From a virus, in IMG/VR virus record IMGVR_UViG_3300020172_001416, positions 34,788 through 98,787 of that record: 64,000 bases of DNA, one strand, 5' to 3'. Positions 27,623 through 52,468 of this stretch are shown here, piece after piece (position 1 is the stretch's first letter; the number at the start of each line of letters is the position of its first letter). The translations under genes and the position numbers were made by a program. Below the pieces are notes generated by a model. That model had not been told where the DNA came from, ran no database searches, and saw only the letters and a program-made list of their open reading frames with translations.

Positions 27623-27838
27623 ATGTACGTTGAAGTAAAAGGCGATAAGCAGTCTGATTTAGAACGGGCCCTCCAACAATTCGTCAAGCAAGTTAAGCGG
27701 GCTGAATTAATGGAAGATTTAAAGAAGAAAGAGTTCTACTTAAAGAAATCTAAAAGACTTGAAAAGAAGAGTCAAGACGCGTTCCGTAGACGGAAACGGG
27801 AAGAGAGTAAGGCCCAGAAGAAGAATAATACATTCTAA
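27623..27838 (+). CDS. rpsU: Ribosomal protein bS21 homologue
   Basis: 71 aa; VEV.....LERALQQFVKQVKR..LMEDLKKKEFYLKKS matches the bS21 pattern (E.AL..FK....G...E....EFY.KPS); basic tail; SD GGAGG. Confidence 0.8.
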   Translation: MYVEVKGDKQSDLERALQQFVKQVKRAELMEDLKKKEFYLKKSKRLEKKSQDAFRRRKREESKAQKKNNTF

Positions 27839-35957: not shown

Positions 35958-35976
35958 TCAGTTTTTTCAATAACAA

Positions 35977-35985
35977 CTATTTATT
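35977..35985 (+). promoter_or_regulatory. Putative late promoter motif CTATTTATT
   Basis: Recurring motif between the sheath and tube genes. Confidence 0.5.
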
Positions 35986-36014
35986 AAAGTACCAATCTAT
36001 ATTTGGAGAGCCAT

Positions 36015-36503
36015 ATGGCAAATTTGGTCAATGAACAAGAACTATTTTTTACCGCATTCGAACCAAAGACTGCGAATCGGTATATAATGTTGTTAGATGG
36101 TGTTCCTTCTTATCTCATCAAGAAGGCAGACCGTCCAAAGTTAACCCAAGAAAAGAAGAAGCTTGACCACATCAATCTTCAACGCTATGTCAAGGGTAAG
36201 ACGATTTGGGAAGAAATGAACCTTGAATTATATGACCCAATCGTTCCATCAGGCGCACAAGCAGTAATGGAATGGGTTCGTCTCCACCACGAATCAGTTA
36301 CCGGTCGTGACGGATATGCAGAATTTTATAAGAAGGACATTATCATCAACGTACTTGGACCAGTCGGTGATAAGGTTGAAGAATGGATTCTCAAGGGATG
36401 CCAAATTACTAAGATTGAATTCGGTGAAATGACTTGGGAAAAGGATGACCCAATGGTAATCTCACTCAGTATCCAACCAGATTACTGCATCCTTAACTAC
36501 TAA
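36015..36503 (+). CDS. gp19: Tail tube protein (gp19-like)
   Basis: Start reassigned to ATG 36015 after GGAG. Directly follows the sheath gene; FEPK..NRY, YKKD and EEWILKGC motifs. Confidence 0.85.
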   Translation: MANLVNEQELFFTAFEPKTANRYIMLLDGVPSYLIKKADRPKLTQEKKKLDHINLQRYVKGKTIWEEMNLELYDPIVPSGAQAVMEWVRLHHESVTGRDGYAEFYKKDIIINVLGPVGDKVEEWILKGCQITKIEFGEMTWEKDDPMVISLSIQPDYCILNY

Positions 36504-37788: not shown

Positions 37789-39630
37789 ATGGCAAATGAA
37801 TTTATTGCCCGTAAAGGTCTAATAGTCCTTAATAACGGTGCAAAAATTACTGGGTCGCTTGAAGTTTCCAGTAATAGTATATTTTATGGCCCAGTCACCG
37901 CATCAGCGGGCGCCACTGGTTCATTTACCGGCTCATTTAAAGGCGACGGATCACAATTAACGGGACTCGGCAGCGACCTTCGTATTAGTGGGTCAACTGG
38001 AAATGACACGCTCAGTTTATTAACAGATACATTAACTCTTAGTGGGTCGAACGGTGTTACCACGGTAGTCACCAATAATACCGTAACTATCGGTATTCCA
38101 TTAGGAACTGTCTCCGCCTCATCACAAGTAGACCATAACGCTACCACTAATTATGTAGCAAACCAACACGTTGACCACTCAACGGTAAGTATTACAGCAG
38201 GCAATGGTTTAACTGGTGGTGGTGATATTACAACTACCCGCACGTTAACGCTTGACACGGGGTCTACTCATTTTACCGATGGTATTAAGAAAAAGCTCAA
38301 TACAGATGGAGTAGTCAGTAGTTCTGCGCAAATCGATGTCACACAAACAACAAATTATTCTACATTAGCAACTACTGGTTCAAATACCTTTACGGGTATT
38401 CAAACGATTAGTAACACCACCAATAGTACAAATTTCACTGACGGTGCTTTAATTGTTCAGGGTGGTGTTGGAATTGCAAAGAATGTAAACATTTCTGGAA
38501 GTTTGAATGTTACAGGATTATTTACTGTAACATCAATGTCTGTCCAATATGTTACATCATCCCAAGTTGTAGTTGCTGATAATGAAATTATTCTAAATGC
38601 AACAAACGCCACTAGATTTGGTGGTATGTCAGTTATTGATTCTGGTTCAGCAACTCCATTAACTGGCTCATTATATTGGGACAGTTACACCAATCGTTGG
38701 TTAGCACAAAATATCTCTGGGTCATCAATTACCAGTGGTATCGTAATCCTCGGTCCAGAAAATACTACTACCACGGGTAACGAAGCACAACTCGTTGATG
38801 GTCGTGTCGTAGTAGCAACGGAAGGAAATCACATCGATAATCGACCAGGATATTCTCCACTTCGTATTGTTGGTAATACATTACATGCAGAAGAAAATGT
38901 ATACGTAACTGGGTCACTTACCGCATCATTCTTCTCCGGCGACGGTAGTAATTTGTCGGGTATCGTTACTACCTTAATCATTTCGGGATCTGATGATACT
39001 ACAACTACAAACGGATACGTCAATCTTAAGAATGAAGCACTTATCGTCAGCGCAAGTGAAGGTATTAATCTTAGTGTTAGTAATCAAACGCTTACCATTA
39101 GTGGTGAATTAGCAAACGGAAGTAATAAGGGTGTCGCATCATTCGATGCGGCAAACTTTTCATCATCGCTTGGACATATTACCGCGTACCCGATTACCTT
39201 TAATACTGTACCACTTAATCTTGGCAGCAGTTATTCGTTTGGTCTTCAAAATATTACTCCATATGGAGCAACGACCACCGACCAACTTTCATTACAAGGT
39301 GGGGCAATCATTCAAGGTGTGTTATTCGCATCAGCAAGTAACCTTGATGTAGATACTGGCACCGAAGTAGTTGCTACTGTATCCACGGGTAGTTATGATG
39401 CAGCATTCTTTGATTATGTCATCAAGAAAACAACCAATTATCGTGCAGGCACGGTAATGGTAGTATGGGACCAAACGGGTAATGTAGAATTTACTGATAC
39501 GTCTACAAACGATTTGGGGAACACAAACGATGTCGTGTTAAGTGCAGACATTCTTTCAGGCAATGCACGACTAAAAGCAACAGTTAATTCTGATAACTGG
39601 ATAGTCAAAACCGCTGTTCGCGCATTATAA
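37789..39630 (+). CDS. Tail fibre protein
   Basis: 613 aa, T/S/G-rich; MANEFIARKGLIV N-terminus shared with the next gene; GALIVQGGVGIAKN fibre-type repeat. Confidence 0.65.
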   Translation: MANEFIARKGLIVLNNGAKITGSLEVSSNSIFYGPVTASAGATGSFTGSFKGDGSQLTGLGSDLRISGSTGNDTLSLLTDTLTLSGSNGVTTVVTNNTVTIGIPLGTVSASSQVDHNATTNYVANQHVDHSTVSITAGNGLTGGGDITTTRTLTLDTGSTHFTDGIKKKLNTDGVVSSSAQIDVTQTTNYSTLATTGSNTFTGIQTISNTTNSTNFTDGALIVQGGVGIAKNVNISGSLNVTGLFTVTSMSVQYVTSSQVVVADNEIILNATNATRFGGMSVIDSGSATPLTGSLYWDSYTNRWLAQNISGSSITSGIVILGPENTTTTGNEAQLVDGRVVVATEGNHIDNRPGYSPLRIVGNTLHAEENVYVTGSLTASFFSGDGSNLSGIVTTLIISGSDDTTTTNGYVNLKNEALIVSASEGINLSVSNQTLTISGELANGSNKGVASFDAANFSSSLGHITAYPITFNTVPLNLGSSYSFGLQNITPYGATTTDQLSLQGGAIIQGVLFASASNLDVDTGTEVVATVSTGSYDAAFFDYVIKKTTNYRAGTVMVVWDQTGNVEFTDTSTNDLGNTNDVVLSADILSGNARLKATVNSDNWIVKTAVRAL

Positions 39631-39662
39631 TATAAACCTTTGGATAATGAAGAAGGGGAATT

Positions 39663-42600
39663 ATGGCAAATGAATTCGTAGCCAGAAAGGGGCTGATAGT
39701 TTCTGGCAGTGCAAACATTACTAATGCGGTCACCGCATCATATTTTAAGGGAGATGGTAGTCAACTAACCAATCTTCCAACGGCCTCCATACCGCCAGGT
39801 GTGGTATCGTCGTCTGCGCAAATTGATGTTCGTAATACCACCGGTATTCAGACGATTGCCACTACGGGGTCAAATACCTTTAGAGGTAATCAAATTGTTA
39901 CCGGTAGTTTGAACATTACGGGGTCAACCACACAAATTGGTAATAATATATTAGCAGGAAACACACTATTATCGGGAACATTGATAGTATCAAGTGCGCT
40001 CGGGGTTACCGATCCGTCCGTACATATATACGGCGACCTACAAGAAACAGGATATATACGATTCAATCCTACGACTACAAATATTGATTTAGGTATTAGT
40101 GCATCCTACATCTACGTCAGTGGGTCAACCAATGACTTATATTTCACACAAAATGGAAGCGGATTCCTTAACACCACACGGTTACGGTGGTTAGAATCAA
40201 ATTTATATACGGGTTTGCTAAATGGTGGTGTTATGTCGTCTTCGTTGGGGTCAACGACATTTAGTATCACGTCGGGGTCTGGTCTTATCGTTACACAAAA
40301 TGCAAGTCTTGCAAATGAACCGTACCCCGCAGTAAAATATGTCGTATGGGGAAATAAGACAAATGTTCCTATCACGTACTCGGGTTCCGCAAAGATTACC
40401 TACGTTGGATTAGATAGTAATGGCGATGTGGTACAACAAACCGCCGCGTGGGGGTCAACAAATATCGACCAATGGGATACAGAAATCTTCCTCGGGGTAG
40501 TATTGCATTTAAGTGGTAGTGTATCCACTGGGGTGTTTAATTCCCCACAAATTTCCTATGGTGGATTTCAAAAGAATGATGACTTTATTAGAGCATTCGG
40601 TCCATTAAAGGTAACGGGGCATACACTAACCGCAAGTGGGTCAAGTTTAGGAATTAATCGAACCGCAGGAACGGCATTCCGTGAGGGCTCAAATTATACA
40701 ATTAATGCAAACCACCCATCCACGGTTGTAGAAGCTGCAACGACGACCTCAAAAATTTATCGGTATTACCTATCCGGATCCACACCAATCATTGATACAG
40801 GCGTTAGCGCAGTAGGATATACGGTCATTGACCCAACACAATATGTAAACGTTGCTACGGGGCAATTAACCACGGTAACAGGAACTAGTCCAGCTACAAA
40901 TCACTGGACTGTTCAACGTGTATTCTGGGTTCCAAACTCCCCAACAAGTGCATTTATTGTTTATTACGGTAATGCAGAATATGCCACGCTACTTGACGCA
41001 CGGAATGGTATTGATACCGAACCGTTCTCGGAAGCACCGAATACGGCACTCAATGCAATATTCTTAGGTTATTTAATCGTTAGAAAAGATTGTACCAATT
41101 TAACAGATAGTGCAACGTCAGCAATCGTGCAAGGCGGCATTTTTCGTAGTGTTGGTGGTATAGGAGCATCTGGTGTTACCCCAGCATCAACCACACTATC
41201 TTCACTATCTGATGTAGGAATTATAAGCCCTACCGTTGGTGACTTGTTAGTATATGATGGTGCTATATGGCATAATACCAAGACGCTGAATGGAAATTAC
41301 ATATTGACAGGTAGTTTGACTACGAACGATGGTATTACGTCCGTATCGGTTACCAGTTCTTTGTATGGTACCAGTAGTTGGGCAGTTTCCGCATCACAAG
41401 CACTTACTGCCTCGTACGCATTAAACGCGGGTGGCTCTGGATTCCCATTCTCTGGGAGTGCGGTTATCACGGGGTCACTATTAGTATCACAAAGTGGCAT
41501 CGTAGTTACGGGGTCACTAAACGTTTCCGAAGGTATTACAGGATCATTGTTTGGGACCAGTAGTTTTGCAGTATCTGCTTCTTATGCACAAACTGCATCA
41601 TTTGCCCTAACTCCACAAGGACCACAAGGCCGACAAGGCCCGCAAGGCAATCAAGGCCCACAGGGCAACCAAGGCCCTCAAGGGAATCAAGGTAATCAAG
41701 GTCCACAAGGCAATCAGGGTCCGCAAGGTAACCAAGGCCCAACCGGAAATACAGGTGGCACTGGTCCGCAAGGTAATCAAGGACCAACGGGGGTAACGGG
41801 GTCACAAGGCAATCAGGGTCCGCAAGGTAATCAAGGACCGCAAGGTAACCAAGGACCGCAAGGCAATCAAGGACCAAGTGGACAACAAGGTAATCAAGGG
41901 CCGCAGGGACTTGGGGCACAAGGTAATCAAGGTCCGCAGGGTAGTACCGGTCCGCAAGGAAACCAAGGCCCACAAGGAAACCAAGGACCAACCGGACCGC
42001 AAGGCAATCAAGGCCCGCAAGGCAATCAAGGCCCACAAGGTAATCAAGGCCCACAAGGGCGCCAAGGCCCACAAGGCAATCAAGGCCCACAAGGCAATCA
42101 AGGCCCACAAGGAAACCAAGGACCAACTGGACCTCAAGGTAATCAAGGACCAACCGGTGGCACGGGTAGTACTGGACCACAAGGGAACCAGGGTCCGTTA
42201 GGTCCACAAGGTAATTTAGGTCCACAAGGGAACCAAGGTCCAACCGGAAATACAGGTGGTACCGGTCCACAAGGAAACCAAGGTCCAAGTGGTGCTACTG
42301 GACCACAAGGTAACCAAGGACCGCAAGGGTTAGGCCCACAAGGAAACCAAGGTCCAACCGGCGGTACAGGTCCAACCGGACCACAAGGCCGCCAAGGCCC
42401 GCAAGGCAATCAAGGCCCACAAGGTAATCAAGGCCCAACCGGACCACAAGGAAACCAAGGACCAACAGGACCACAAGGAAATTTGGGACCACAAGGGCGC
42501 CAAGGCCCACAAGGCAATCAAGGACCAACCGGAAATACAGGTGGCACTGGTCCACAAGGCAATCAAGGACCAACCGGCGGTACAGGCCCAACCGGACCAC

Positions 42601-43217
42601 AAGGTAATCAAGGACCAACCGGCGGTACAGGCCCAGCCGGACCGCAAGGCAATCAAGGCCCAACCGGACCAACCGGCGGTACAGGTCCAACCGGACCACA
42701 AGGCCGCCAAGGCCCGCAGGGGAACCAAGGTCCAACCGGAAATACAGGTGGCACTGGTCCACAAGGCAATCAAGGCCCAACCGGACCACAAGGTGCAGCT
42801 GGTGGATTTACTACAAGCTCTAACGCCCAAGTAAACTCTTTAGGCGTTGGCACAGCTGCATCGGGTACGGCTGGTAATATTCGTGCAACTAACGACATTG
42901 TTGCCTACTATTCATCAGATGCTAGATTAAAGAAAAATAAGCAAGTTATTGCCAGTGCAATTGAAAAGATTCGTCAATTGGGTGGATATGAGTTTGATTG
43001 GATACCGATGGAAGGTATTCACGAAAACTATGGTCACGACATCGGTGTTATCGCTCAAGAAATTGAAAGAGTCATTCCTGAAGTCGTTATCACCAGAGAA
43101 AATGGGTATATGGCCGTTCGTTATGAAAAGATTGTCGCCCTATTAATTCAAGCAATCAAGGAATTAGACCTAGAAATTGAAAAATTAAAGAATAAGGACT
43201 TGACAACAGACGAGTAA
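39663..43217 (+). CDS. Tail fibre with collagen triple-helix domain and C-terminal S74 intramolecular chaperone
   Basis: [11 protein letters not shown]-terminus; long (Gly-X-Y)n; [11 protein letters not shown] autocleavage motif followed by GVIAQEIE and [16 protein letters not shown]. Confidence 0.85.
41619..42800 (+). repeat. Collagen-coding 9/18-bp tandem repeat (GPQ-GNQ, with GPT/GGT/GNT variants)
   Basis: 394 codons, equal to 130 Gly-X-Y triplets plus two Gly-Leu interruptions; DNA unit approximately GGNCCRCAA-GGNAAYCAA. Confidence 0.95.
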
Positions 43218-43228
43218 AGGTGTATACT
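43200..43228 (+). promoter_or_regulatory. Sigma70-type promoter of the oxygenase/glycosyltransferase cassette
   Basis: TTGACA (43200-43205), N17, TATACT (43223-43228). Confidence 0.8.
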
Positions 43229-43257
43229 AAATAGGTTACAACGCATAAGGACTATAA

Positions 43258-43308
43258 ATGAGTTATATTACAATAAAAATAAACACACGTATTCATACTG
43301 CCATATGA
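43258..43308 (+). CDS. Putative leader peptide MSYITIKINTRIHTAI
   Basis: 16 codons, SD TAAGGA 6 nt upstream; the stop codon lies in the 5' arm of a long hairpin. Confidence 0.45.
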   Translation: MSYITIKINTRIHTAI

Positions 43309-43345
43309 GAATTTCTTATATGTTGGTATGAATACGTTTTGTTTT
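43281..43345 (+). terminator. Long leader hairpin with U-rich tail (attenuator/terminator or RNase III site)
   Basis: Perfect 12-bp arms ACGTATTCATAC (43287-43298) and GTATGAATACGT (43326-43337), an inner stem with G-U pairs, followed by a T-rich tract (TTTGTTTT). Confidence 0.65.
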
Positions 43346-43365
43346 ACACCAATTAAGGAGTTTCT

Positions 43366-44307
43366 ATGAAAGACATTATGAATCATTTTACTAATGTTAA
43401 CGGTATCTTGTGGTATATGGATTCGCTAGAAGTTAACGGAAGTGCGCTGACATTCAAAGGATGGCTGGCTCACACAGAACAAGCTATCAGCTCGATAACA
43501 CTTAATAACCAACCAATCCTTACGACCATCGGATTTCGACCAGATGTGGTTAAGGTGTATCCATTTTTAAAGACACCCCACGTTGGCGTCGAAGTAACAA
43601 TCGATAGAAATCAAATCAAGGATTCCGTAGGACTTATTTTAGCGGACGGGTCAACGGTTCAGAATATTGGTACATTTGAGAAGTGGGCGATATTTTATTC
43701 TGGATTTAATCCGATACAAAAGAAAGGGGTCGTAGTCGTCGATAACTTCTACGACAATCCAGATTGGATTCGTTCATTCGCAATGAATAATTTGACATTC
43801 GCTGGTTCGGATTATCATCGGGGTAAGCGTAGTGAAGAACGTTTCATTCTAAACGGAACGAAGGAAGCTTTCGAGCGTATCTTAGGTAAAGAAATTATTA
43901 ATTGGAATGACCCGTCATATGCAAATGGAAAGTTCCAATACTGCACATCAACAGACCCGATTGTATACCACGTTGACACACAAACATACGCTGCGATGGT
44001 ATACCTCACGCCTGATGCCCCATTAAACTCTGGAACCGCAACGTATCGTAGTAAGATTACGGGAGCAACCCGATTTGACAACTATGATGACAATCCAGAA
44101 CTGTATGAACGTACATTTAAGGGTCGGTCAAGTCAAATGAATTTCTACGACAATAGTACCTACGAATTAGTTGATAGTATTGCAAACGTGTATAACCGAT
44201 TGGTAATGTTCGATGCAAAGACGTTACATGCTGCTACTAACTACTTTGGTGATAGTATTGAAACCGCTCGATTCTTCCAACTGTTCTTCTTTGATGTAGC
44301 GTGGTAA
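43366..44307 (+). CDS. 2OG-Fe(II) oxygenase-like protein with an N-terminal beta-rich domain
   Basis: VVDNFYDNPD, HVD (HxD), YLTPDAP..SGT, NRLVMFD, LHAA and RFFQLFFF motifs; SD AAGGAG. Confidence 0.75.
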   Translation: MKDIMNHFTNVNGILWYMDSLEVNGSALTFKGWLAHTEQAISSITLNNQPILTTIGFRPDVVKVYPFLKTPHVGVEVTIDRNQIKDSVGLILADGSTVQNIGTFEKWAIFYSGFNPIQKKGVVVVDNFYDNPDWIRSFAMNNLTFAGSDYHRGKRSEERFILNGTKEAFERILGKEIINWNDPSYANGKFQYCTSTDPIVYHVDTQTYAAMVYLTPDAPLNSGTATYRSKITGATRFDNYDDNPELYERTFKGRSSQMNFYDNSTYELVDSIANVYNRLVMFDAKTLHAATNYFGDSIETARFFQLFFFDVAW

Positions 44308-44308
44308 A

Positions 44309-45127
44309 ATGCAGGTAATTGATTGTGTTATCTTTTCGGACGAGGTTGATTTACTAAAGAAGCGTCTGGCATATTACGATGACAAAGTAGACCAGTTTGT
44401 AATATGTGAAGCAGACAAAAACTTTTATGGGGAAGATAGAGAATTGGTATTTCCCACAATTCGTGACGAACTAAAAAATAAAGACAAAATAACATATTTG
44501 GTTAATCGTGAGTTTGAACACGTATCAAAAGGGATTGAATATACGTGGCCACAAGGTCCGTGGGTAAATGAATGGAAGTTACGAGAACAGCTTAATTCAT
44601 TTATCGCCGACCAACTGGACGATGATATTATCATTATAAGTGACACGGATGAGTTTTACGACAAGCGGTTCATATATGACCACGGAAAGCCGGTCACGTT
44701 TATGATGACAAACAATTACTTTTATATAAATTACGTAGGTAATAAAACGACAATACCAGGCCCGCAATTATTTACTAAAAAGAATTATTATGATTTCGTG
44801 GGTACAGAATTTGAATATTATTCGGCACATTTAAATTCTGTGCAAGGGATGAGAAACAGTCCAATGTCGGGATTTAAGAAGATTATTTATGATGCAGCGT
44901 GGCATTTCAGTTATTTGGGTGGGTTACCATCTATACGAAAGAAATTAAACAACTTTTCTCATTCTGAGCTAATGCACTATCAAAATCAGCCAGATGAGTA
45001 TTTCTTAGATAAGATTTCAAAGTTTGAAGATATTTTTGGTAGACCCGTAACGTATGGAATCAAAGATAACTTGACGCAAGAGCTTAAAGAATTATTTAAT
45101 ACGCCAGAGTATTATTATTCAGTATAA
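44309..45127 (+). CDS. Glycosyltransferase, GT17-like (beta-1,4-GlcNAc transferase family)
   Basis: IDCVIFSDEVDLLKKRL, VDQFVICE, ISDTDE (DxD) and WHFSYLGG...KKLNNFSHSE motifs. Confidence 0.75.
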   Translation: MQVIDCVIFSDEVDLLKKRLAYYDDKVDQFVICEADKNFYGEDRELVFPTIRDELKNKDKITYLVNREFEHVSKGIEYTWPQGPWVNEWKLREQLNSFIADQLDDDIIIISDTDEFYDKRFIYDHGKPVTFMMTNNYFYINYVGNKTTIPGPQLFTKKNYYDFVGTEFEYYSAHLNSVQGMRNSPMSGFKKIIYDAAWHFSYLGGLPSIRKKLNNFSHSELMHYQNQPDEYFLDKISKFEDIFGRPVTYGIKDNLTQELKELFNTPEYYYSV

Positions 45128-45134
45128 GGAGAGC

Positions 45135-46955
45135 ATGGTGTTAAAATTACATTTATTTACTAGATGTACTCGGTTACATAATCTAGAAAAAATTAAACAA
45201 ACGGTATTTCCAAGCCCATTTGATGTGGTTTGGCATTTGTTATTTGATACTACTACACTTAAGGATATTGATGCGGAGCTGTTAAACCGACTGCAAAATA
45301 ACCAAACACGGTTTTATTTTCTTAAAAGTAATGGGACTGATTATCTTTATCCGCAAATCAGTACGATAGTGGCGGGGGTTGAAGAAGGATTCGTCTCAAT
45401 TCTAGATGATGATAACATCCTACACCCAGACTTCTATACTGAATTACTGGAAGCGATTCAACAAAATCCAACCAAGAAAGGATTTGTGTTTGAACAATAT
45501 GTCGGTGGAAATGATTTTACGGGATTAGAGATTCGTAAGGTAGGCCCAGAACATATGAAGCTCCGTCATATAGATTCTGCCCAATATGCCTTACATACAT
45601 CTCTGTATAGTCTAAAAACATATGAAGGTGGGTATGATGCGGACGGTCGATTTATTGAACCTTTATATAATCTTGTACCCGATGAGTTTCACTTTATCCA
45701 CAAGGTACTGTGTTTTTACAACTACTTAACAGCTGTCAAGAAAGCTAGAGTACCAAAGGTATTATATATTGGTCCTGATGAGCCAAAGCTTGAAAGTATA
45801 AATTACTTGGGGTACGAAGATGTTAGTTTAGATGTCACGTACGCCAAGGATGATGCACAGTTAAACAATATTTTAATAAACGTCAAACCCGATTCTATTA
45901 TTACCGTATCGGATGATTATAAAAAGTTTCCAAATCTGTGTTATTCAAATTTAGAAGTACGTAAAAAGTGGATGACTGTTCCTCCAACGCAACAGAATAT
46001 CGGAGATATCGCATATAATTGTGCGATGAATCAAATGCTTGAACAAAGTAATGAACATTTGATTTCGTACTTTACTCCAATTTATAACACAGGAACTAAG
46101 CTAGTCCGAACATACGAATCGTTGAAAGAGCAAACCTATCAAAATTGGGAATGGGTGATGGTTAACGATTCATCCGATGGTGGTAAGACGTTAAAAATCG
46201 CAGAGCAAATCGCAGCACAAGACCCCAGAGTTAGAGTATATGATTTTAGAGAAAAGACCAAGGGAATCATTGGGGAATCAAAATATAGAGCTGCGTGTTT
46301 GACTCGGGGTAAGTGGCTCGCAGAACTGGACCACGACGACTTATTAACCGACAACTGTTCGATGGATGTGATGAATGCAGCAAATAAGTTTCCCGATGCT
46401 GGATTTATTTATAATGATAGCGTCGAAGTAACCGAAGATTGGGTATCGCTTACATATGGGGAAGGATTCTCTCTTGGGTATGGCACGTATAGAAAAGTTA
46501 ATTATCGGGGATGTAATTGGGATGTTGCTTTAACCTCGAACATCAACCCAAAAACAATTCGTCATATTGTTGGAGTACCGAACCACGTACGAGTATGGCG
46601 TCGTGATGTGTACTTCGCCGTCGGTGGTCACAATAGAGACTTGGCTATAGCAGATGATTATGAATTGATTGTACGAACATTTCTACACACTAAATTTGTA
46701 AAGATACCAAAGCTCGGATACATTCAGTTTATTTATAATAATCACACGGGTCAGAATACACACGATTTGTCGAGGGCAGATATTCAACGTAGAGTTAGAA
46801 CAATTATGTATCATTATAATGCTAGGATTGCACAAAGATTCGCAGAACTTGGCGTAGACGATTATCCATATCGAATCAACCCAAATGACCCGTTAAGCGT
46901 ACCAAGTCGATTTGGAACAGAAGAAAACTTTGTAAATTACATTTACGAGGATTAA
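45135..46955 (+). CDS. Glycosyltransferase with two GT-A (GT2-like) domains
   Basis: N-terminal domain LDDDN, IDSAQ, ADGRF; C-terminal domain FTPIYN, QTYQNWEWVMVNDSS, ELDHDD and ADDYEL. Confidence 0.8.
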   Translation: MVLKLHLFTRCTRLHNLEKIKQTVFPSPFDVVWHLLFDTTTLKDIDAELLNRLQNNQTRFYFLKSNGTDYLYPQISTIVAGVEEGFVSILDDDNILHPDFYTELLEAIQQNPTKKGFVFEQYVGGNDFTGLEIRKVGPEHMKLRHIDSAQYALHTSLYSLKTYEGGYDADGRFIEPLYNLVPDEFHFIHKVLCFYNYLTAVKKARVPKVLYIGPDEPKLESINYLGYEDVSLDVTYAKDDAQLNNILINVKPDSIITVSDDYKKFPNLCYSNLEVRKKWMTVPPTQQNIGDIAYNCAMNQMLEQSNEHLISYFTPIYNTGTKLVRTYESLKEQTYQNWEWVMVNDSSDGGKTLKIAEQIAAQDPRVRVYDFREKTKGIIGESKYRAACLTRGKWLAELDHDDLLTDNCSMDVMNAANKFPDAGFIYNDSVEVTEDWVSLTYGEGFSLGYGTYRKVNYRGCNWDVALTSNINPKTIRHIVGVPNHVRVWRRDVYFAVGGHNRDLAIADDYELIVRTFLHTKFVKIPKLGYIQFIYNNHTGQNTHDLSRADIQRRVRTIMYHYNARIAQRFAELGVDDYPYRINPNDPLSVPSRFGTEENFVNYIYED

Positions 46956-46956
46956 A

Positions 46957-47619
46957 ATGTACTCTATCGTTATACCCACGATGTGGAAGCAGCACCTAGG
47001 ACGATTTAGAGAAGTGCTAGTTGATTTAAATAATAGCAGTTTGGTTAATGAAATTATTTTGATAGATAATGATTCGAATTCTTGCCCAACTGAAATGTTA
47101 ACGGGTTTAAGTAAATTACAGTATAACAAGCAAATAGAAAATATATATGTAAACCCAGCGTGGAACTTAGGAGTTGATATCTCTACGAGTGAATATGTGA
47201 TGATTCTAAACGACGATGTATGGTGCAATCCATCGATACCATATATATTAACTGCACATCAATCGCACGCTGATAAAGAAAACGGAATCTACGGATTATC
47301 TACGAGTTGCTTTTTATGTGAAGATATGATTACGGATGTCCACAATACGGAAATTCAAGTAGTCAATACAGAAGGTCGAGGTACGGGGTGGGGGTGTTTA
47401 TTTATGTTTAAGCGAGACAGATGGACGCCTATCCCAAATGAATTAAAAGTCTGGTTTGGTGATGATTTTATAACCAGAGAGTTTACAAAACGTAGTGATG
47501 TAGTGTATTCAATTAAAAATGTTTGTGTAACGGAATGGTCGATCACCTCTAGATTACCTGAATTTACCCCGATTACTGAAAACGACAAGGAAATATATTT
47601 TTCTAAATATTCTAACTAA
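46957..47619 (+). CDS. Glycosyltransferase, GT2-like
   Basis: SIVIPT, IILIDN, VNPAWNLG, ILNDD, GCLF and WFGDDF motifs. Confidence 0.8.
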   Translation: MYSIVIPTMWKQHLGRFREVLVDLNNSSLVNEIILIDNDSNSCPTEMLTGLSKLQYNKQIENIYVNPAWNLGVDISTSEYVMILNDDVWCNPSIPYILTAHQSHADKENGIYGLSTSCFLCEDMITDVHNTEIQVVNTEGRGTGWGCLFMFKRDRWTPIPNELKVWFGDDFITREFTKRSDVVYSIKNVCVTEWSITSRLPEFTPITENDKEIYFSKYSN

Positions 47620-47629
47620 GGAGTTATTT

Positions 47630-48214
47630 ATGCAAAACACTTTTATTTTCCCAAAAAAGCACGTAGATTCACAGAACTACTACTGGTTTGACAAAGGGTT
47701 TAGTGACCAAGAGCTTGATAAGATTTATCGGGAAGTTGGCGAAATCCCATTCCAAGAAGCAACCACTGCTGGTGGGAATAAGCAAATCCGCTCATCATCT
47801 ATTAAGTGGGTTCCCCAAACTGAAAAGTGGGAATGGCTATATGATAAGTTAATGCGGATGGCTGTCGAAGCTAATGATGTACTTTGGAACTTCGATTTAC
47901 ATACCGCACCAGAAGGAATTCAATACACCGAATACCACGCTTCTGCTGGTGGTCATTATGGATGGCACCAAGACATCGGACCTGGCATGTTATCACTTCG
48001 AAAGGTGTCTATTACCGTACAATTAGCTGCTCCAGATGAATATGAAGGCGGTGATTTAGAAATCTGGCAGGGTGGAGATGGTCCACTTCAAGCCCCACGG
48101 GGTCGTGGAAATGTGGTTATTTTCCCATCCTATATGATGCACCGGGTTGCCCCAGTCACTAAGGGAACTCGTCGGTCCTTCGTATTGTGGCTTGGTGGTG
48201 ACCATTATCGGTAA
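47630..48214 (+). CDS. 2OG-Fe(II) oxygenase (prolyl-hydroxylase/PKHD-like)
   Basis: IRSS, QYTEY, WHQD (HxD), RKVSITVQL, YEGGDL, FPS..HRV.PVTKG.RRSFVLW motifs. Confidence 0.85.
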   Translation: MQNTFIFPKKHVDSQNYYWFDKGFSDQELDKIYREVGEIPFQEATTAGGNKQIRSSSIKWVPQTEKWEWLYDKLMRMAVEANDVLWNFDLHTAPEGIQYTEYHASAGGHYGWHQDIGPGMLSLRKVSITVQLAAPDEYEGGDLEIWQGGDGPLQAPRGRGNVVIFPSYMMHRVAPVTKGTRRSFVLWLGGDHYR

Positions 48215-48240
48215 AATTTGTCTATTATTGGTTAAATTAG

Positions 48241-48249
48241 ATATTTATA
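48241..48249 (+). promoter_or_regulatory. Putative late promoter motif ATATTTATA
   Basis: Recurring motif located where structural genes resume. Confidence 0.55.
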
Positions 48250-48275
48250 GTGGTACCTTTCCATAAGAGACATAC

Positions 48276-49091
48276 ATGGGTATTTTAGAACGAGTATTAG
48301 ACGGGGCGAGTTTTACAAGAAGAACACTTACTATTCCTACGTTTTATGCAGGGATAGTAAGTGGGGCTATGGCACCCCGTCCCGGTGGGGCATTTATTTT
48401 ATTAAATGCAGAATCAAATAAGACCACGCGAATCAGATTATATTCGGACAGTGCTAGTGTCAATATTGATGCTAGTAGAGGGCCTACCGATTTCAATCTC
48501 AACGATTCAGTTGCATTAATCTCCGATATTTCTTTAATACAAGGAACTGGTCTAAGCCTTGATTTAAATCCGCCTATTATCGGAAACACGTTTAGTAATG
48601 GTGATGTATGGTATCATATTAGTAGTTCATTCGGTCCTACAGCGGTGAACTTAACAGTATATGATTTTGGAGTTGTTGGAGATAGTATCACCGACCGCAC
48701 TTCATTAATAATAAGTCGGTCATCTATCCCTACTACGGGGTATGGCGTGTCTGGTAGTATTACCACAAAGAAGAGTTTTATAATATTAAGTGGTAGCGCC
48801 ACAACAGGATCACGGTTAAGACTATATTCAACACGAATTGAAGATGTTCCGTCATCAGAACAAACGCGGTCATTCGATACGGCCTCGGCGGCCGCATCAC
48901 AATTGATTGCAGACGTTATTTTTGATACTGGAAGTTTTGCATACAAGTTTGTTCCTGTGTTGGAAGCCTACACGTGGGAAGCTGGAAACCTTTCTACTGG
49001 AACCGGAACGCTTGGGTATCAATTAGAAAATAGAACGGGTGCTACACAAAATATCACCGCGTCACTCTACATTCTCTCCACAGAAGAATAA
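48276..49091 (+). CDS. Probable virion protein with an internally duplicated domain
   Basis: Two copies of FI(L/I)L...R(I/L)RLYS...R...LI.D; similar to the C-terminal domain of the 1..4545 ORF. Confidence 0.5.
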   Translation: MGILERVLDGASFTRRTLTIPTFYAGIVSGAMAPRPGGAFILLNAESNKTTRIRLYSDSASVNIDASRGPTDFNLNDSVALISDISLIQGTGLSLDLNPPIIGNTFSNGDVWYHISSSFGPTAVNLTVYDFGVVGDSITDRTSLIISRSSIPTTGYGVSGSITTKKSFIILSGSATTGSRLRLYSTRIEDVPSSEQTRSFDTASAAASQLIADVIFDTGSFAYKFVPVLEAYTWEAGNLSTGTGTLGYQLENRTGATQNITASLYILSTEE

Positions 49092-49092
49092 T

Positions 49093-49335
49093 ATGAGATT
49101 TTATCCATTTGGGTCGGGTTCAGCAAATTTACAATCCGTATTAACTGCTTCGTATGCTAGTTATGCAGCAACAGCGAGTGCAGCTATACGAGTTTATACG
49201 GCATCGAAAGCTATTACAGGCGTGGATGGTGTAAATGGTTCTGATGGGATTTGTATATATGTACAAGGACCACAAGGAGCAACCGGTAGTAAAGGACCAA
49301 CGGGAGCACCCGGTGGTATTTCCGACGCTTTCTAG
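49093..49335 (+). CDS. Mini-collagen protein 1
   Basis: Start reassigned to ATG 49093 (MRFYPFG). TASYASYA motif, then short interrupted Gly-X-Y runs. Confidence 0.55.
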   Translation: MRFYPFGSGSANLQSVLTASYASYAATASAAIRVYTASKAITGVDGVNGSDGICIYVQGPQGATGSKGPTGAPGGISDAF

Positions 49336-49343
49336 GATTATTT

Positions 49344-49874
49344 ATGCAATTTTTTCCTCATAATGTACCAATAAGCATTACCAATACCGCGGTAAGTGCA
49401 AGCTTAACACAAACGGCACAGTTTTTATATAATTTAGGTACCATAGCAATTAATACCGCGAGTTTTGCACTTAATATTTCTGGGTCTACTGGTGCTAGTG
49501 GGTCGAACTATACCAAGACGGGTGCAACGGGTCCACAAGGATCGACCGGCCCATCTGGATATCGTGGAAATAGTGTGTATCTGTTATCTATAGCCAGAAG
49601 TACGGGGTCTAATACTGTGTGCTACACCACAGACGCTCTTGGTACCGCTACATTTAATGGGGTAAATTATACTTGTAATTACGGATTTGCACAAACCTAT
49701 TACGCCAATGCGAGTTCATTAACGAACGGAGTAGTATTATATTATGATTCATCATGTTCATCACTCGCAGTTAACCTATCAAGTTTATCAGACCCAACAA
49801 GTAACGCGATATTCAATACCGATGGCGCTGGAACTATCACTCTCACCGGCAACACTTGCGCGAGCAGCATCTAA
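49344..49874 (+). CDS. Mini-collagen protein 2 with a Cys-containing C-terminal domain
   Basis: MQFFPH start; TASFA; [27 protein letters not shown]; four Cys residues. Confidence 0.55.
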   Translation: MQFFPHNVPISITNTAVSASLTQTAQFLYNLGTIAINTASFALNISGSTGASGSNYTKTGATGPQGSTGPSGYRGNSVYLLSIARSTGSNTVCYTTDALGTATFNGVNYTCNYGFAQTYYANASSLTNGVVLYYDSSCSSLAVNLSSLSDPTSNAIFNTDGAGTITLTGNTCASSI

Positions 49875-50326
49875 TGTCATATTATTTTCCATTTGGTAAT
49901 TCAAGTTTAGTGGTAAACACAAACGTTAGTTATTCGATATCTGCGGCTACGGCAAGTAGACCACAATTTGCATCGATTGTTGTTCCAACAGCGTCTTTCG
50001 TAACATCAGTCATTAATGCACCAGCAAGTGGTACGATCGGTGTTCACAAATCTGCGTCAGACTGTACAAGTACTTCGCCTGTCGGCGCCCAAGGGGTAAC
50101 CGGTCAACAAGGTGATATGGGTAGTAGTTATACCGTGTGTCCTCCCGGAACAAAAGAATGTCCTGGATTATTTACTTCATTATCTTTGTTTGTTAACCCA
50201 AACAGAGCGTCTGGTTCTCAATTCAGTATCGTATGTATTGAAACTGCTGGGTATGTATACTCAAGCGTAGGATGTCCAGGTTATTTACCAACATCATCAA
50301 ATCCAAACATCCCTGCTATTCCATAA
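49874..50326 (+). CDS. Mini-collagen protein 3 with a Cys-rich C-terminus
   Basis: Start overlaps the upstream stop (TAATG). MSYYFPFG; TASFV; GAQGVTGQQGDMGSS; CPPGTKECPG. Confidence 0.55.
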   Translation: MSYYFPFGNSSLVVNTNVSYSISAATASRPQFASIVVPTASFVTSVINAPASGTIGVHKSASDCTSTSPVGAQGVTGQQGDMGSSYTVCPPGTKECPGLFTSLSLFVNPNRASGSQFSIVCIETAGYVYSSVGCPGYLPTSSNPNIPAIP

Positions 50327-50328
50327 CC

Positions 50329-50357
50329 TTGACAAATATTAAACGGCATTTTAAATT
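50329..50357 (+). promoter_or_regulatory. Sigma70-type promoter for the helicase operon
   Basis: TTGACA (50329-50334), N17, TAAATT (50352-50357). Confidence 0.65.
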
Positions 50358-50382
50358 TTATTAAACACCATAGGTAGATATT

Positions 50383-50598
50383 ATGACAGCAACGGTTCCA
50401 GTTCCATTGGCATTACGCCATTTAATTGAAAGTAACAACCAATTATTGAAAACGTATCAACAAGAGTTGACCACCAAAGTAGTGGTCGCTAACGAAGAAA
50501 TGATGCGGCTATTAGGATTAGACCCCAACGATGGGTGGAGATTAGACGTAGATACATTCACATACGTCAAGGTCGAAGATGGTACATCCGTCAGCTGA
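50383..50598 (+). CDS. Hypothetical protein
   Basis: 71-aa ORF after the promoter, SD TAGGT. Confidence 0.55.
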   Translation: MTATVPVPLALRHLIESNNQLLKTYQQELTTKVVVANEEMMRLLGLDPNDGWRLDVDTFTYVKVEDGTSVS

Positions 50599-52468
50599 TA
50601 CCGCAATACTTACGTGGGGAAAATTCAAGGGATATTCGCTTTCGACTGTTTATTATCGAAATCAATCATATCTCCAATGGATGACCACCACGATTGGGAT
50701 TCCCGAAGTCTGGAAAGAAGCAGCCAAACTGGTATTGGCTGGTGAAGACATTTCCCATTTAAAGATTGCCCGTACCACGCAAACTCCCGCGGTAGAAAAG
50801 CCCCAAACATCAACATCAGTTCAAGTCACCGTTACGTTAGTTGATAGTAAAACGGGGGCTGTCGCTATGCCATATAATCCACCCTTGATGGAACGTTTCA
50901 AGTACGAAGTAGACGGTCGTAAGTGGAATGGGGAAAATAAAACGTGGGAGTTTCCAGCAGTTCATCTTCCGAAAGTGTTTAAGGTCTTTGGCGAAGAAAA
51001 TATCCAATGTGATGAGAAAGTCTTGAAGTTACTGGAAAAGCTCAAAGACCGTCGAGAAGATTTAGACGAGATTCGAGTCAAAGATGATATTGATTTTGAC
51101 ATCAATGGCATGCAACTTCAGCTTTACGCATACCAGAAAGTTGGCGTCAAGTTCGTCGAACGAGCCGACGGCCGATGTCTGATTGCCGATGCACCTGGGT
51201 TGGGTAAGACTGCACAAGCAATTGGATTTGCCCAACACAAGAACCTTAAGACGGTCATCGTTTGCCCACTCTCCGTCGTGGTTAACTGGAAGCGTGAAAT
51301 CAAGAAGTTTACTGGAAAGGATGCAACCATCTGGGACAGTAAGAGTTACGATGGAAAACTCTCCAATCAGTTCCATATCGTCCACTATGACGCCGTGGGT
51401 AAGGTTGTTGGTGACTTACGAAAGCAAGAATTTGAACTACTGGTCTGTGACGAAGCAACCTATCTCAAGAACCGACAAACCATCCGAGCAAAGAGTATTC
51501 TGGGTTCGTATAAAGAACGACGTAAATATCCAGGCATCAAAACGAAGTACTGCCTATTCCTTACTGGTACTCCTGTGATGTCTCGTCCAATCGAAGCGTT
51601 CGCTTTGTTGAACTTCCTTGACAAAGAACGTTTCAATAATTTCTTCCATTTTACCCAGCGGTACGGGGGATGGAAGGGAGAAGCACCCCGCAATCTCCAA
51701 GACCTCCACGACCGCACGAAAGATTTGGTTATTCGTCGCAAGAAGGAACAGATTCTTACTGAACTTCCAGCAAAACAACGAAATGACCTATACGTTGAGT
51801 TGACAAAGGACGAACAGAAACAATATAAGGAATTACTACGAGAAGTCTTTGGTCGGTGGAAGGTAGAGAAACCTACCATCGGTCACATGCCGAAACTTCA
51901 AAACTTCTTGATTGAAAAGAAGATTCCACGGTTAGTAGAAATGGTGGATGAATTCTTGGATAACGATAAACCGATACTTATTTTCAGTAATTATATTGCT
52001 CCGCTTAAGTTCTTGGCTGAGCAGTATGGGGACAAGGCAGCACTTTTAACGGGTGAGATGAACAGTAAGGAACGTCAAGTCACAATTGACCGATTGACCA
52101 AGGGTGAAGCAAAAGTAGGGTTGTTTAGCCTTATGGCGGCAGGTATGGGTATTGACGGACTCCAACATCAGATAGATACCGTGGTATTTTTGAACTGTGA
52201 TTGGGTTCCAGCAAACCACGAACAAGCTGAGGACAGAACCCACCGTATCGGTCAAAAAGGACAAGTTCAAGTTTATTATATGTTATGTGCCGATACCATC
52301 GATGAATATATGCGTGATATCCTCAAAGAGAAACAGCAGGTGGCAGACTTAGTGGTGGATGGGGCGTTAGTCACTCCTGAACGTTCTAAGTCCTATTTTA
52401 AGGAATTTGTGAAGAAAATTAATAGTGTTTATAAGCAAGATATTTCCACTCAAAATATAGAAGATTAA
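50579..52468 (+). CDS. SNF2-family helicase/translocase (HARP/SMARCAL1-like)
   Basis: LYAYQ, ADAPGLGKT, VCP.SV..NW, CDEA, LTGTP, GMGIDG and QAEDRTHRIGQ motifs; small N-terminal WGKFKG..YLQW domain and a HARP-like RKWN...WEF segment. Confidence 0.9.
   Translation: MVHPSADTAILTWGKFKGYSLSTVYYRNQSYLQWMTTTIGIPEVWKEAAKLVLAGEDISHLKIARTTQTPAVEKPQTSTSVQVTVTLVDSKTGAVAMPYNPPLMERFKYEVDGRKWNGENKTWEFPAVHLPKVFKVFGEENIQCDEKVLKLLEKLKDRREDLDEIRVKDDIDFDINGMQLQLYAYQKVGVKFVERADGRCLIADAPGLGKTAQAIGFAQHKNLKTVIVCPLSVVVNWKREIKKFTGKDATIWDSKSYDGKLSNQFHIVHYDAVGKVVGDLRKQEFELLVCDEATYLKNRQTIRAKSILGSYKERRKYPGIKTKYCLFLTGTPVMSRPIEAFALLNFLDKERFNNFFHFTQRYGGWKGEAPRNLQDLHDRTKDLVIRRKKEQILTELPAKQRNDLYVELTKDEQKQYKELLREVFGRWKVEKPTIGHMPKLQNFLIEKKIPRLVEMVDEFLDNDKPILIFSNYIAPLKFLAEQYGDKAALLTGEMNSKERQVTIDRLTKGEAKVGLFSLMAAGMGIDGLQHQIDTVVFLNCDWVPANHEQAEDRTHRIGQKGQVQVYYMLCADTIDEYMRDILKEKQQVADLVVDGALVTPERSKSYFKEFVKKINSVYKQDISTQNIED

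Follow-up and report, generated by a model that had tools for sequence, protein, structure and literature searches.

The window analysed here is a stretch of 64,000 nucleotides, bases 34788-98787 of the virus record IMGVR_UViG_3300020172_001416 (98.8 kb, ~51% complete), and its region 39663-50326 lies in the tail module of an uncultured freshwater myovirus. In this region a collagen-like tail fibre gene is followed by a cassette of five enzyme genes (43366-48214, all on the + strand), in the order DUF6445 oxygenase, GT17-like glycosyltransferase (GT), dual GT-A glycosyltransferase, small GT2 and prolyl 4-hydroxylase (P4H)-like oxygenase. Judged from gene content and context, the five genes probably form a system that modifies the phage's own Gly-X-Gln/Gly-X-Thr collagen-like fibres post-translationally. 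Gene positions and strands, as listed below, agree with those in a preliminary description of this DNA.

39663-43217, + strand: collagen-like tail fibre, 1184 aa (Pfam Collagen, Peptidase_S74, tail-fibre PHROGs)
43200-43346, + strand: intergenic leader with sigma70-like site, short open reading frame (ORF) and hairpin (motif scan, folding energy)
43366-44307, + strand: DUF6445 (Syn9-gp52-like) 2-oxoglutarate (2OG)/Fe(II) oxygenase (PF20043, predicted structure)
44309-45127, + strand: GT17-like glycosyltransferase, variable accessory (Pfam Glyco_transf_17)
45135-46955, + strand: dual GT-A glycosyltransferase, 606 aa (Pfam Glycos_transf_2 twice, predicted structure)
46957-47619, + strand: small GT2-family GT-A glycosyltransferase, 220 aa (Pfam, conserved Asp pairs)
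47630-48214, + strand: P4H/PKHD-like 2OG/Fe(II) oxygenase, 194 aa (Pfam 2OG-FeII_Oxy_3, phrog_61)
48276-49091, + strand: Ser/Thr-rich 271-aa protein, g48276 (conserved in the window's clade)
49093-49335, 49344-49874 and 49874-50326, + strand: three tandem mini-collagens (10, 6 and 5 triplets)

The first enzyme gene starts 148 nt past the fibre gene and the intergenic gaps within the cassette are 1-10 nt. The collagen region of the fibre (aa 653-1049, nt 41619-42809; Pfam Collagen 163.9 bits, E 6.7e-49) contains 131 Gly-X-Y triplets in three runs of 33, 46 and 52. X is Pro in 65 triplets and Asn in 42, and Y is Gln in 85 and Thr in 36; the region has no Lys, and none of the 131 triplets has Pro at Y. 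These counts bear out the earlier statement of about 130 triplets with Pro or Asn at X, Gln or Thr at Y, and neither Lys nor Y-position Pro. The idea that this composition is a special feature of the fibre was dropped, as Pro/Asn at X and Gln/Thr at Y are usual in prokaryotic collagens (PMC8968730). A Peptidase_S74 intramolecular chaperone (55 bits, E 9.8e-15) lies C-terminal to the collagen region at aa 1085-1142 (nt 42915-43088). The N-terminal part is rich in Ser, Thr and Gly, and a TASYA/TASFA motif lies between it and the collagen region. The protein matches tail-fibre PHROGs and is a predicted triple-helix repeat protein with an S74 chaperone. On this sequence, classical Y-Pro and Lys chemistry is excluded for the window's fibre; the earlier expectation that the chemistry must differ from classical X-Pro-Gly 4-hydroxylation agrees with the absence of Y-Pro.

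The DUF6445 protein was matched by PF20043 with 49.7 bits, and its residues H202, D204, H288 and R302, corresponding to an iron triad and a basic 2OG residue, are invariant in 18 homologues. A wider search gave 513 homologous clusters at 90% identity (E <= 1e-5), on metagenomic contigs of up to 298 kb. The AlphaFold model (predicted local distance difference test score, pLDDT, 78) has an N-terminal beta-sandwich at aa 14-103 and a double-stranded beta-helix (DSBH) at aa 115-313. It aligned with prolyl hydroxylases at Z 11.4-13.0 across 145-160 residues, the nearest folds being Trichoplax PHD (Z 13.0), OGFOD1 (12.8), the P. putida P4H with EF-Tu (12.7) and PHD2 (12.2), followed by Dictyostelium PhyA (6t8m, 12.1), PBCV-1 collagen P4H (11.9) and Chlamydomonas P4H (11.4). 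Mimivirus lysyl hydroxylase L230 and LH3 gave Z 10.7 and 10.3. The Syn9-gp52-like family, which contains the DUF6445 protein, was named by Iyer et al. 2010 as classical 2OG/Fe(II) dioxygenases (PMC2938197), and the model places the protein in the 2OG/Fe(II) oxygenase DSBH superfamily. The P4H-like protein was matched by 2OG-FeII_Oxy_3 (52.4 bits), has H113, D115, H171, R181 and S183 conserved in at least 95% of 33 orthologues, and is nearest by sequence to the PKHD-type hydroxylases PiuC/Sbal_3634 (E 5.5e-7 to 4.2e-6). Two further candidates were rejected: a 311-aa gene at the DUF6445 position in L016-L019 is not a DUF6445 protein, and three tandem 2OG oxygenases in a collagen-free relative (G008), considered as a counter-example, are just 23% identical to the P4H-like enzyme of the cassette.

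Glycos_transf_2 was found in two stretches of the dual GT (Pfam 76.6 bits). Its AlphaFold model (pLDDT 84) consists of a GT-A domain at residues 1-200, a small alpha/beta domain at 208-300 and a second GT-A domain at 310-600, and the DxD motifs D91-D92-D93 and D399-H-D401-D402 are invariant. With the whole chain, Foldseek returned the chondroitin polymerase K4CP (E 1.4e-21), LARGE1 (3.6e-13) and PmHS2 (3.3e-12); the TM-scores to two-headed polymerases are low (~0.32) because the domain arrangement differs. The single domains resemble TarP and RmlT, and a weak PHROG GtrB-like match (E 3.8e-4) falls on the GT-A core. The small GT2 (Pfam 31.2 bits) has D86-D87 and D169-D170 conserved in 22 sequences. 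The GT17-like enzyme (Glyco_transf_17, 65.8 bits) has a conserved D112-x-D114 and was seen, besides the closest relatives (L001-L003), only in L034 (46% identity). DUF6445 and the dual GT make up the core of the cassette and the GT17-like enzyme is a variable accessory. Cassettes of relatives contain extra oxygenases, GT1/GT4, GT9 with a weak TibC-like domain, and Methyltransf_24. Two of them (L007:14446-16551 and L016:12464-14557) encode ~700-aa proteins that combine GT1/GT4 and GT9 (heptosyltransferase) and weakly match the N-terminal domain of TibC (E 6e-4 to 8e-4), an enzyme that O-heptosylates autotransporter adhesin proteins. The predicted active-site motifs of all five enzymes in the window are intact and conserved. 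None of the five has a membrane segment, the maximum 19-residue Kyte-Doolittle hydropathy being <1.0 in each, and all are predicted soluble proteins that would act in the cytoplasm of the infected cell.

Genomic context was counted in IMG/VR for phages and in GTDB species representatives for bacteria, a collagen ORF being defined as one of at least 20 triplets. A collagen ORF was present within 10 kb in 34 of 41 non-redundant phage loci with DUF6445 and/or the dual GT (48-92% identity); it lay within 5 genes in 33 and was the immediate neighbour in 20. Four of the seven loci without one have <3.6 kb of upstream sequence. In nearly every phage locus the genes for DUF6445 and the dual GT are contiguous or overlapping, and the collagen genes vary in position (upstream, downstream or on both sides), with up to four tandem fibres of 150-290 triplets and with differing flanks. 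Non-redundant loci of P4H-like orthologues contain collagen in 31 of 36 cases, 8 of them without a detectable dual GT or DUF6445. As a control, the same phage supergroup was sampled independently of the cassette by anchoring on the sheath, which gave 30 loci of at least 12 kb. Three of these carry a version of the cassette, each next to Q/T-type collagen, 22 lack both the cassette and Gly-X-Y repeats, though their fibres share S74 or N-terminal regions, and 5 have (GTS)n/(GSS)n fibre repeats and no cassette (nominal Fisher p = 2.5e-4, a figure made optimistic by kinship among the loci). In five collagen-free contigs of up to 126 kb, neither Pfam Collagen nor the dual GT was found.

The test of cassette-collagen co-occurrence proposed in the preliminary description has been carried out by these counts: DUF6445, the C-terminal GT-A domain and the P4H-like oxygenase each co-localise with GXQ/GXT collagen across diverged phages. 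A distribution independent of collagen genes, the outcome that would speak against the idea, was not seen; collagen-free relatives lack the cassette, and the GT link recurs in bacterial chromosomes, as described below. Separately, the 236-kb contig of L046 (G001) encodes, at ~133.7-146.3 kb, a 2383-aa protein that is almost all collagen and two collagen proteins of ~900 aa.

The collagens adjacent to cassettes always have Gln at Y (21-88%) and some Thr at Y (4-65%). Pro, Asn and Asp at X and Lys at Y range from 0 to ~50%; among relatives Y-Pro amounts to 0-10%, Lys at Y is 15-36% in some and absent from many, and Pro is nearly missing from some. Giant 'collagen' fibres without a cassette (L104, L105, L135) were rejected as comparisons, since they are (GSS/GTS)n repeats with Ser at Y and not Q/T-type collagen. 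Such (G-T-S)n/(G-S-S)n fibres, with Ser at Y in 76-94% of triplets, were observed at L076:6823-10665, L082:17907-19481 and L104:3-9203, in close relatives (sheath 77% identical) as well as more distant ones, and the repeats are preceded, as they are in the window's fibre, by a TASYA...TAS(Y/F)A(L/I)TP motif. The three Ser-rich-fibre contigs having enough sequence showed no cassette. These fibres look like a second, Ser-rich kind of collagen-like phage fibre.

The best DUF6445 homologue in an isolate (44% identity) belongs to the T4-like cyanophage DSL-LC02, where it sits with mannosyltransferase-like and methyltransferase genes between three collagen-containing genes and a tail fibre. In bacteria, a GXQ/GXT collagen ORF adjoins the gene in 11 of 17 loci for proteins homologous to the middle and C-terminal stretches of the dual GT (36-50% identity), the taxa being Legionellaceae, Delta- and Alphaproteobacteria, Rickettsiales, Muribaculaceae and other metagenome-assembled genomes (MAGs), compared with 0 of 35 weak generic GT2 loci in GTDB (nominal Fisher p = 2e-7, again optimistic given the relatedness of loci). 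The neighbours of the bacterial pairs are housekeeping genes and not phage structural or prophage genes. DUF6445 was found in 0 of 5 genomes with such pairs, the positive control having worked, and a P4H-type gene in 1 of 5, on another contig. Bacterial GT homologues are often fused to an N-terminal Methyltransf_24. Such fusions (519-537 aa) directly adjoin GXQ-type collagen-like ORFs in L165, L167, L169, L172 and L173, from Alphaproteobacteria, Rickettsiales, Muribaculaceae and 'Streptococcaceae' MAGs, with EF-G/LepA-like and ribonucleotide reductase neighbours; they are a candidate bacterial collagen glycosylation/methylation pair.

In Flavobacterium (L155-L159), a 410-aa GT matches residues ~200-603 of the dual GT and its neighbour is a 1703-aa TamB-like protein. 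By sheath, Microcystis phage Mel-JY01 (50.6%) and the 'immuto' phages of Flavobacterium are the isolates nearest to the window's phage. The Flavobacterium similarities may point to a Bacteroidota host or to an exchange of genes. A GT match in megaphage LR756501 was uninformative, there being no table-11 ORF at the site and no collagen nearby, and a single-domain GT homologue in S-CRM01 stands among early genes and was too distant to count.

For substrate, residue, donor sugars, order of steps and benefit we infer the following scheme. The C-terminal GT-A domain of the dual GT would directly glycosylate a natural side chain within the collagen repeat, with Thr at Y as a conservative guess for the acceptor. 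The N-terminal GT-A domain, the small GT2 and the GT17-like enzyme would then extend or diversify the glycan. The two oxygenases would hydroxylate fibre residues, candidates being Pro or Asn/Asp at X, and hydroxylation may be a parallel modification or may create extra acceptor sites. The outcome would be a hydrated, glycan-coated fibre that is more stable and shielded and possibly altered in adhesion. The preliminary description had proposed that hydroxylation precedes glycosylation. As a strict order this finds no support in the bacterial GT-collagen pairs, which lack DUF6445 and in all but one genome a P4H-type gene, or in the 8 phage loci with P4H and collagen but neither GT nor DUF6445. 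Since the bacterial pairs occur without oxygenases, glycosylation by the GT-A would need no prior hydroxylation, and hydroxylation and glycosylation appear to be separate modules that can be combined, not the two steps of one fixed pathway.

A wider proposal could also be entertained, tentatively and with the balance against it: that the Gly-X-Gln/Thr collagens of prokaryotes and phages have their own dedicated and widespread maturation machinery, whose chemistry differs from the animal one, made up of a collagen-specific GT-A acting directly on the repeat and, in phages, a two-headed K4CP-like transferase and two oxygenases resembling protein hydroxylases, perhaps giving proteoglycan-like fibres with oligomeric or glycosaminoglycan (GAG)-like glycans. 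The oxygenases would in that case modify X-position Pro, Asn/Asp or even Gln.

Several observations weigh against modification of the fibre collagens by the cassette. Cassettes of the L046/L051 type lie 20-30 kb from giant collagen genes and that of L057 is also non-adjacent; the phage loci are interrelated, so that inheritance accounts for some of the synteny and independence is overstated by the Fisher p-values; and only Gly, Gln and a little Thr are common to all cassette-adjacent collagens. Distant marine-cyanophage homologues of DUF6445 stand in dioxygenase arrays or, as in S-SSM7, among clustered sugar-nucleotide and GT genes, and no collagen lies within 10 kb of them. The closest bacterial homologues of the dual GT (54-56%), in five Flavobacterium species, adjoin the TamB-like gene and no collagen. 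In structure the dual GT comes closest to polysaccharide polymerases and teichoic-acid transferases and not to enzymes that glycosylate proteins, and AlkB/ALKBH folds (Z ~10, range 9.6-10.5 with TET at 9.6) come only 2-3 Z under the prolyl hydroxylases in the DUF6445 comparison.

Some of these points lead to the main rival, which we consider unlikely, that the GTs alter or build a host-surface glycan (O-antigen, capsule or a GAG-like polymer), the oxygenases tailoring its sugars, and thereby block superinfection or aid release. GTs in the hypervariable tail-fibre region of pelagimyophages have been read in this way (PMC7029224). The structural neighbours of the dual GT (K4CP, PmHS2, LARGE1, TarP, RmlT) act on polysaccharides or teichoic acids, the TamB-like neighbour in Flavobacterium is an envelope-biogenesis gene, the S-SSM7 cluster fits the same picture, and a host-type promoter precedes the cassette in the window's clade. 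The cassette nevertheless has no membrane segment, flippase, polymerase or lipid-carrier enzyme, and collagen-free relatives, presumably under equal superinfection pressure, do without it. Remodelling of host glycans does not predict the bacterial GT-collagen adjacency (against 0 of 35 for generic GT2), and both oxygenases are closer to protein hydroxylases than to sugar-tailoring ones, notwithstanding that the sugar-tailoring oxygenase HygX is also among the structural matches of DUF6445. A second, quite unlikely alternative has the enzymes act on some other phage or cell product: the Ser/Thr-rich non-collagen domains of the fibres, g48276, g37789, or a small peptide or metabolite of the kind suggested for the dioxygenase arrays of cyanophages. 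Ser and Thr together make up 25-26% of the fibre N-terminus, g37789 and g48276, and no residue type is conserved in all collagens. Mycobacteriophage GTs glycosylate the C-termini of capsid and tail-tube proteins, as cited in PMC12619734, and Iyer et al. link Syn9-gp52-like oxygenases to halogenase/peptide-tailoring clusters (PMC2938197). All the same, the cassette is missing from relatives whose fibres have the same scaffold without collagen or carry (GTS)n repeats, and the bacterial partners have only the collagen repeat in common with the phage fibres. Nor did NxS/T sequons favour such targets; an N-glycosylation idea was rejected, as the many sequons in structural proteins are not above composition (best z 2.4; fibre not enriched).

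Pairs of an oxygenase and a GT hypermodify DNA in other phages, the oxygenase hydroxylating a base and the GTs glycosylating it in evasion of restriction. This precedent and the AlkB/TET folds noted above are what favours DNA as the target here, a weak and highly improbable alternative. No Tet_JBP (PF12851), PF00303 hydroxymethylase-like or PF00145 C5 methyltransferase gene was found in the 98.8-kb, ~51% complete record, the genes sit inside a tail-fibre module, protein prolyl hydroxylases outrank nucleic-acid oxygenases as DUF6445 folds, and the collagen association in phages and bacteria would go unexplained. It is also very unlikely that there is no functional link at all and that the cassette is a 'moron' island in a recombination-prone fibre region whose adjacency to collagen is inherited synteny. 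Fibre regions are hypervariable hotspots that gather unrelated genes (PMC7029224), and most loci come from one large freshwater myovirus group; but adjacency survives rearrangement and persists down to 47% sheath identity, presence or absence of the cassette tracks the collagen content of the fibre, and a T4-like cyanophage and bacterial chromosomes show the association as well.

The leader between fibre and cassette contains TTGACA-17-TATACT at 43200-43228, the best + strand sigma70-like match within 17.5 kb. The total number of sigma70-like sites in the 17.5 kb equals chance expectation and this site was kept only in the window's clade; the sigma70 promoter assigned earlier to the cassette stands as the best match of the region and not as a universal feature. 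Between the fibre stop and the DUF6445 start (43200-43365) there are also a Shine-Dalgarno sequence with a short ORF and a ~23-bp hairpin at 43287-43336 followed by a U-run (-33 kcal/mol, z = -4.0). L003, L004 and L023 share this layout, the stem sequence being different in L004 and L023; it was missing in L009 and L013, where the oxygenase starts ~50 nt after the fibre. The hairpin could be a terminator of the fibre gene or an attenuator of the cassette.

Downstream of the cassette, the product of g48276 had been called a virion protein. It gave no Pfam or PHROG match, and in the Atlas only hypothetical viral clusters; within the window's clade it occurs together with the mini-collagens, and it may be another substrate or a structural partner. 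Of the three mini-collagens reported earlier, all are present and conserved in the window's clade, at just 10, 6 and 5 triplets and under the Pfam cut-off; the last two genes overlap via a TAATG stop/start. Sheath and tube genes lie upstream of the region at 33651-36503, the fibre gene starting 3.7 kb downstream of them, and helicase, baseplate hub and tape-measure genes lie downstream. The helicase (629 aa, 50579-52468; phrog_62, E 1e-104) stands between the mini-collagens and the baseplate hub/tape-measure genes, an odd site for a replication-type gene that was kept in L003, L004, L007 and L023. A bS21 gene at 27623-27838, between protease and scaffold, was noted in the preliminary description; Microcystis phage Mel-JY01 has an RpsU-annotated gene in the equivalent head-operon position (L154:2198-2425).

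No near-identical DNA was found among isolate phages. For the DNA of 39600-50400, >90% of sampled words were present in runs from freshwater, drinking-water and 'fungus' metagenomes, from ~12 of 15 listed studies, and the phage carrying this cassette is widespread. With few differences, contigs from two RNA libraries match parts of the genes for the fibre, DUF6445, the dual GT, P4H, g48276 and the mini-collagens; they are a weak hint of expression, as contigs cannot prove transcription, starts or co-transcription, and stretches that no contig covers carry no information.

Reviews describe the collagens of prokaryotes and phages as generally lacking both hydroxylation and glycosylation (PMC8968730), and phage GTs in fibre regions are usually read as modifiers of host O-antigen or DNA (PMC7029224, PMC10202952). 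A literature search, with most subscription journals outside it, returned no description of DUF6445 or of a phage-encoded collagen-modifying system. The module is abundant in freshwater phages. If the fibres are indeed modified, post-translational glycan coats would join the determinants of phage host range, stability and recognition by immune systems or grazers, the enzymes could serve in making stabilised recombinant bacterial collagens, and collagen maturation enzymes would have arisen more than once outside animals.

The cassette resembles mimivirus L230 and LH3 (PLOD3)/COLGALT1 in having a 2OG/Fe(II) oxygenase and GT-A domains, translationally coupled in the cassette, beside collagen genes, virus-encoded in the case of mimivirus. 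In L230/LH3, Lys is hydroxylated and Gal/Glc is then transferred; as the window's fibre is without Lys, its acceptor chemistry cannot be hydroxylysine. Moreover, the oxygenase is DUF6445 and not PLOD, LH3 and COLGALT1 are outside the top structural matches of the dual GT, and the bacterial GT homologues occur without an oxygenase partner. Skp1 is modified by the cytoplasmic prolyl hydroxylase PhyA and then by Gnt1 and the two-domain diglycosyltransferase PgtA, all soluble. The cassette shares with this pathway and with plant/algal hydroxyproline (Hyp) O-glycosylation a PHD-type hydroxylase fold and soluble GT-A enzymes, one of them two-domain; there is no sequence orthology, and the substrates there are a single Pro or Ser-Pro repeats, not collagen.

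Vent-worm cuticle collagen has Thr(Gal) at Y. Bacillus BclA (GPT, Thr O-glycosylated) is, like the window's fibre, a prokaryotic-type collagen with Pro at X, Thr at Y and no Hyp, and the stability or hydration of such collagens is attributed to Thr O-glycans (PMC8968730). Unlike in BclA, Gln dominates Y in the window's fibre (85 against 36 Thr) and the enzyme families differ, the two oxygenases included; no rhamnose or anthrose biosynthesis genes were seen. Iyer, Abhiman, de Souza and Aravind 2010 predicted beta-hydroxylase/sulfotransferase operons with collagen-like or tail-collar proteins, likewise a genomic prediction of 2OG oxygenases acting on co-encoded collagen-like proteins whose hydroxyl is then derivatised (PMC2938197). 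Those operons are bacterial and combine AspH-/PhyH-like oxygenases with sulfotransferases, unlike the cassette, and the Syn9-gp52-like genes were tied there to halogenase clusters, not to collagen or glycosyltransferases (PMC2938197). In mycobacteriophages (Freeman et al. 2023, cited in PMC12619734), soluble phage GTs encoded near structural genes also glycosylate virion proteins; the targets there are capsid and tail-tube C-termini, with other GT families and with neither collagen nor oxygenases.

The cassette is a member of none of the L230/LH3/COLGALT1, BclA-type, Skp1 and Iyer et al. systems, because Y-Pro and Lys substrates are absent and the enzyme families differ. It is also unlike Gtr-type O-antigen conversion, with its membrane flippase and bactoprenol GT, in that all five enzymes are free of hydrophobic segments. 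With K4CP, PmHS2 and LARGE1 the dual GT shares the arrangement of two GT-A domains per chain, both of its DxD motifs being conserved.

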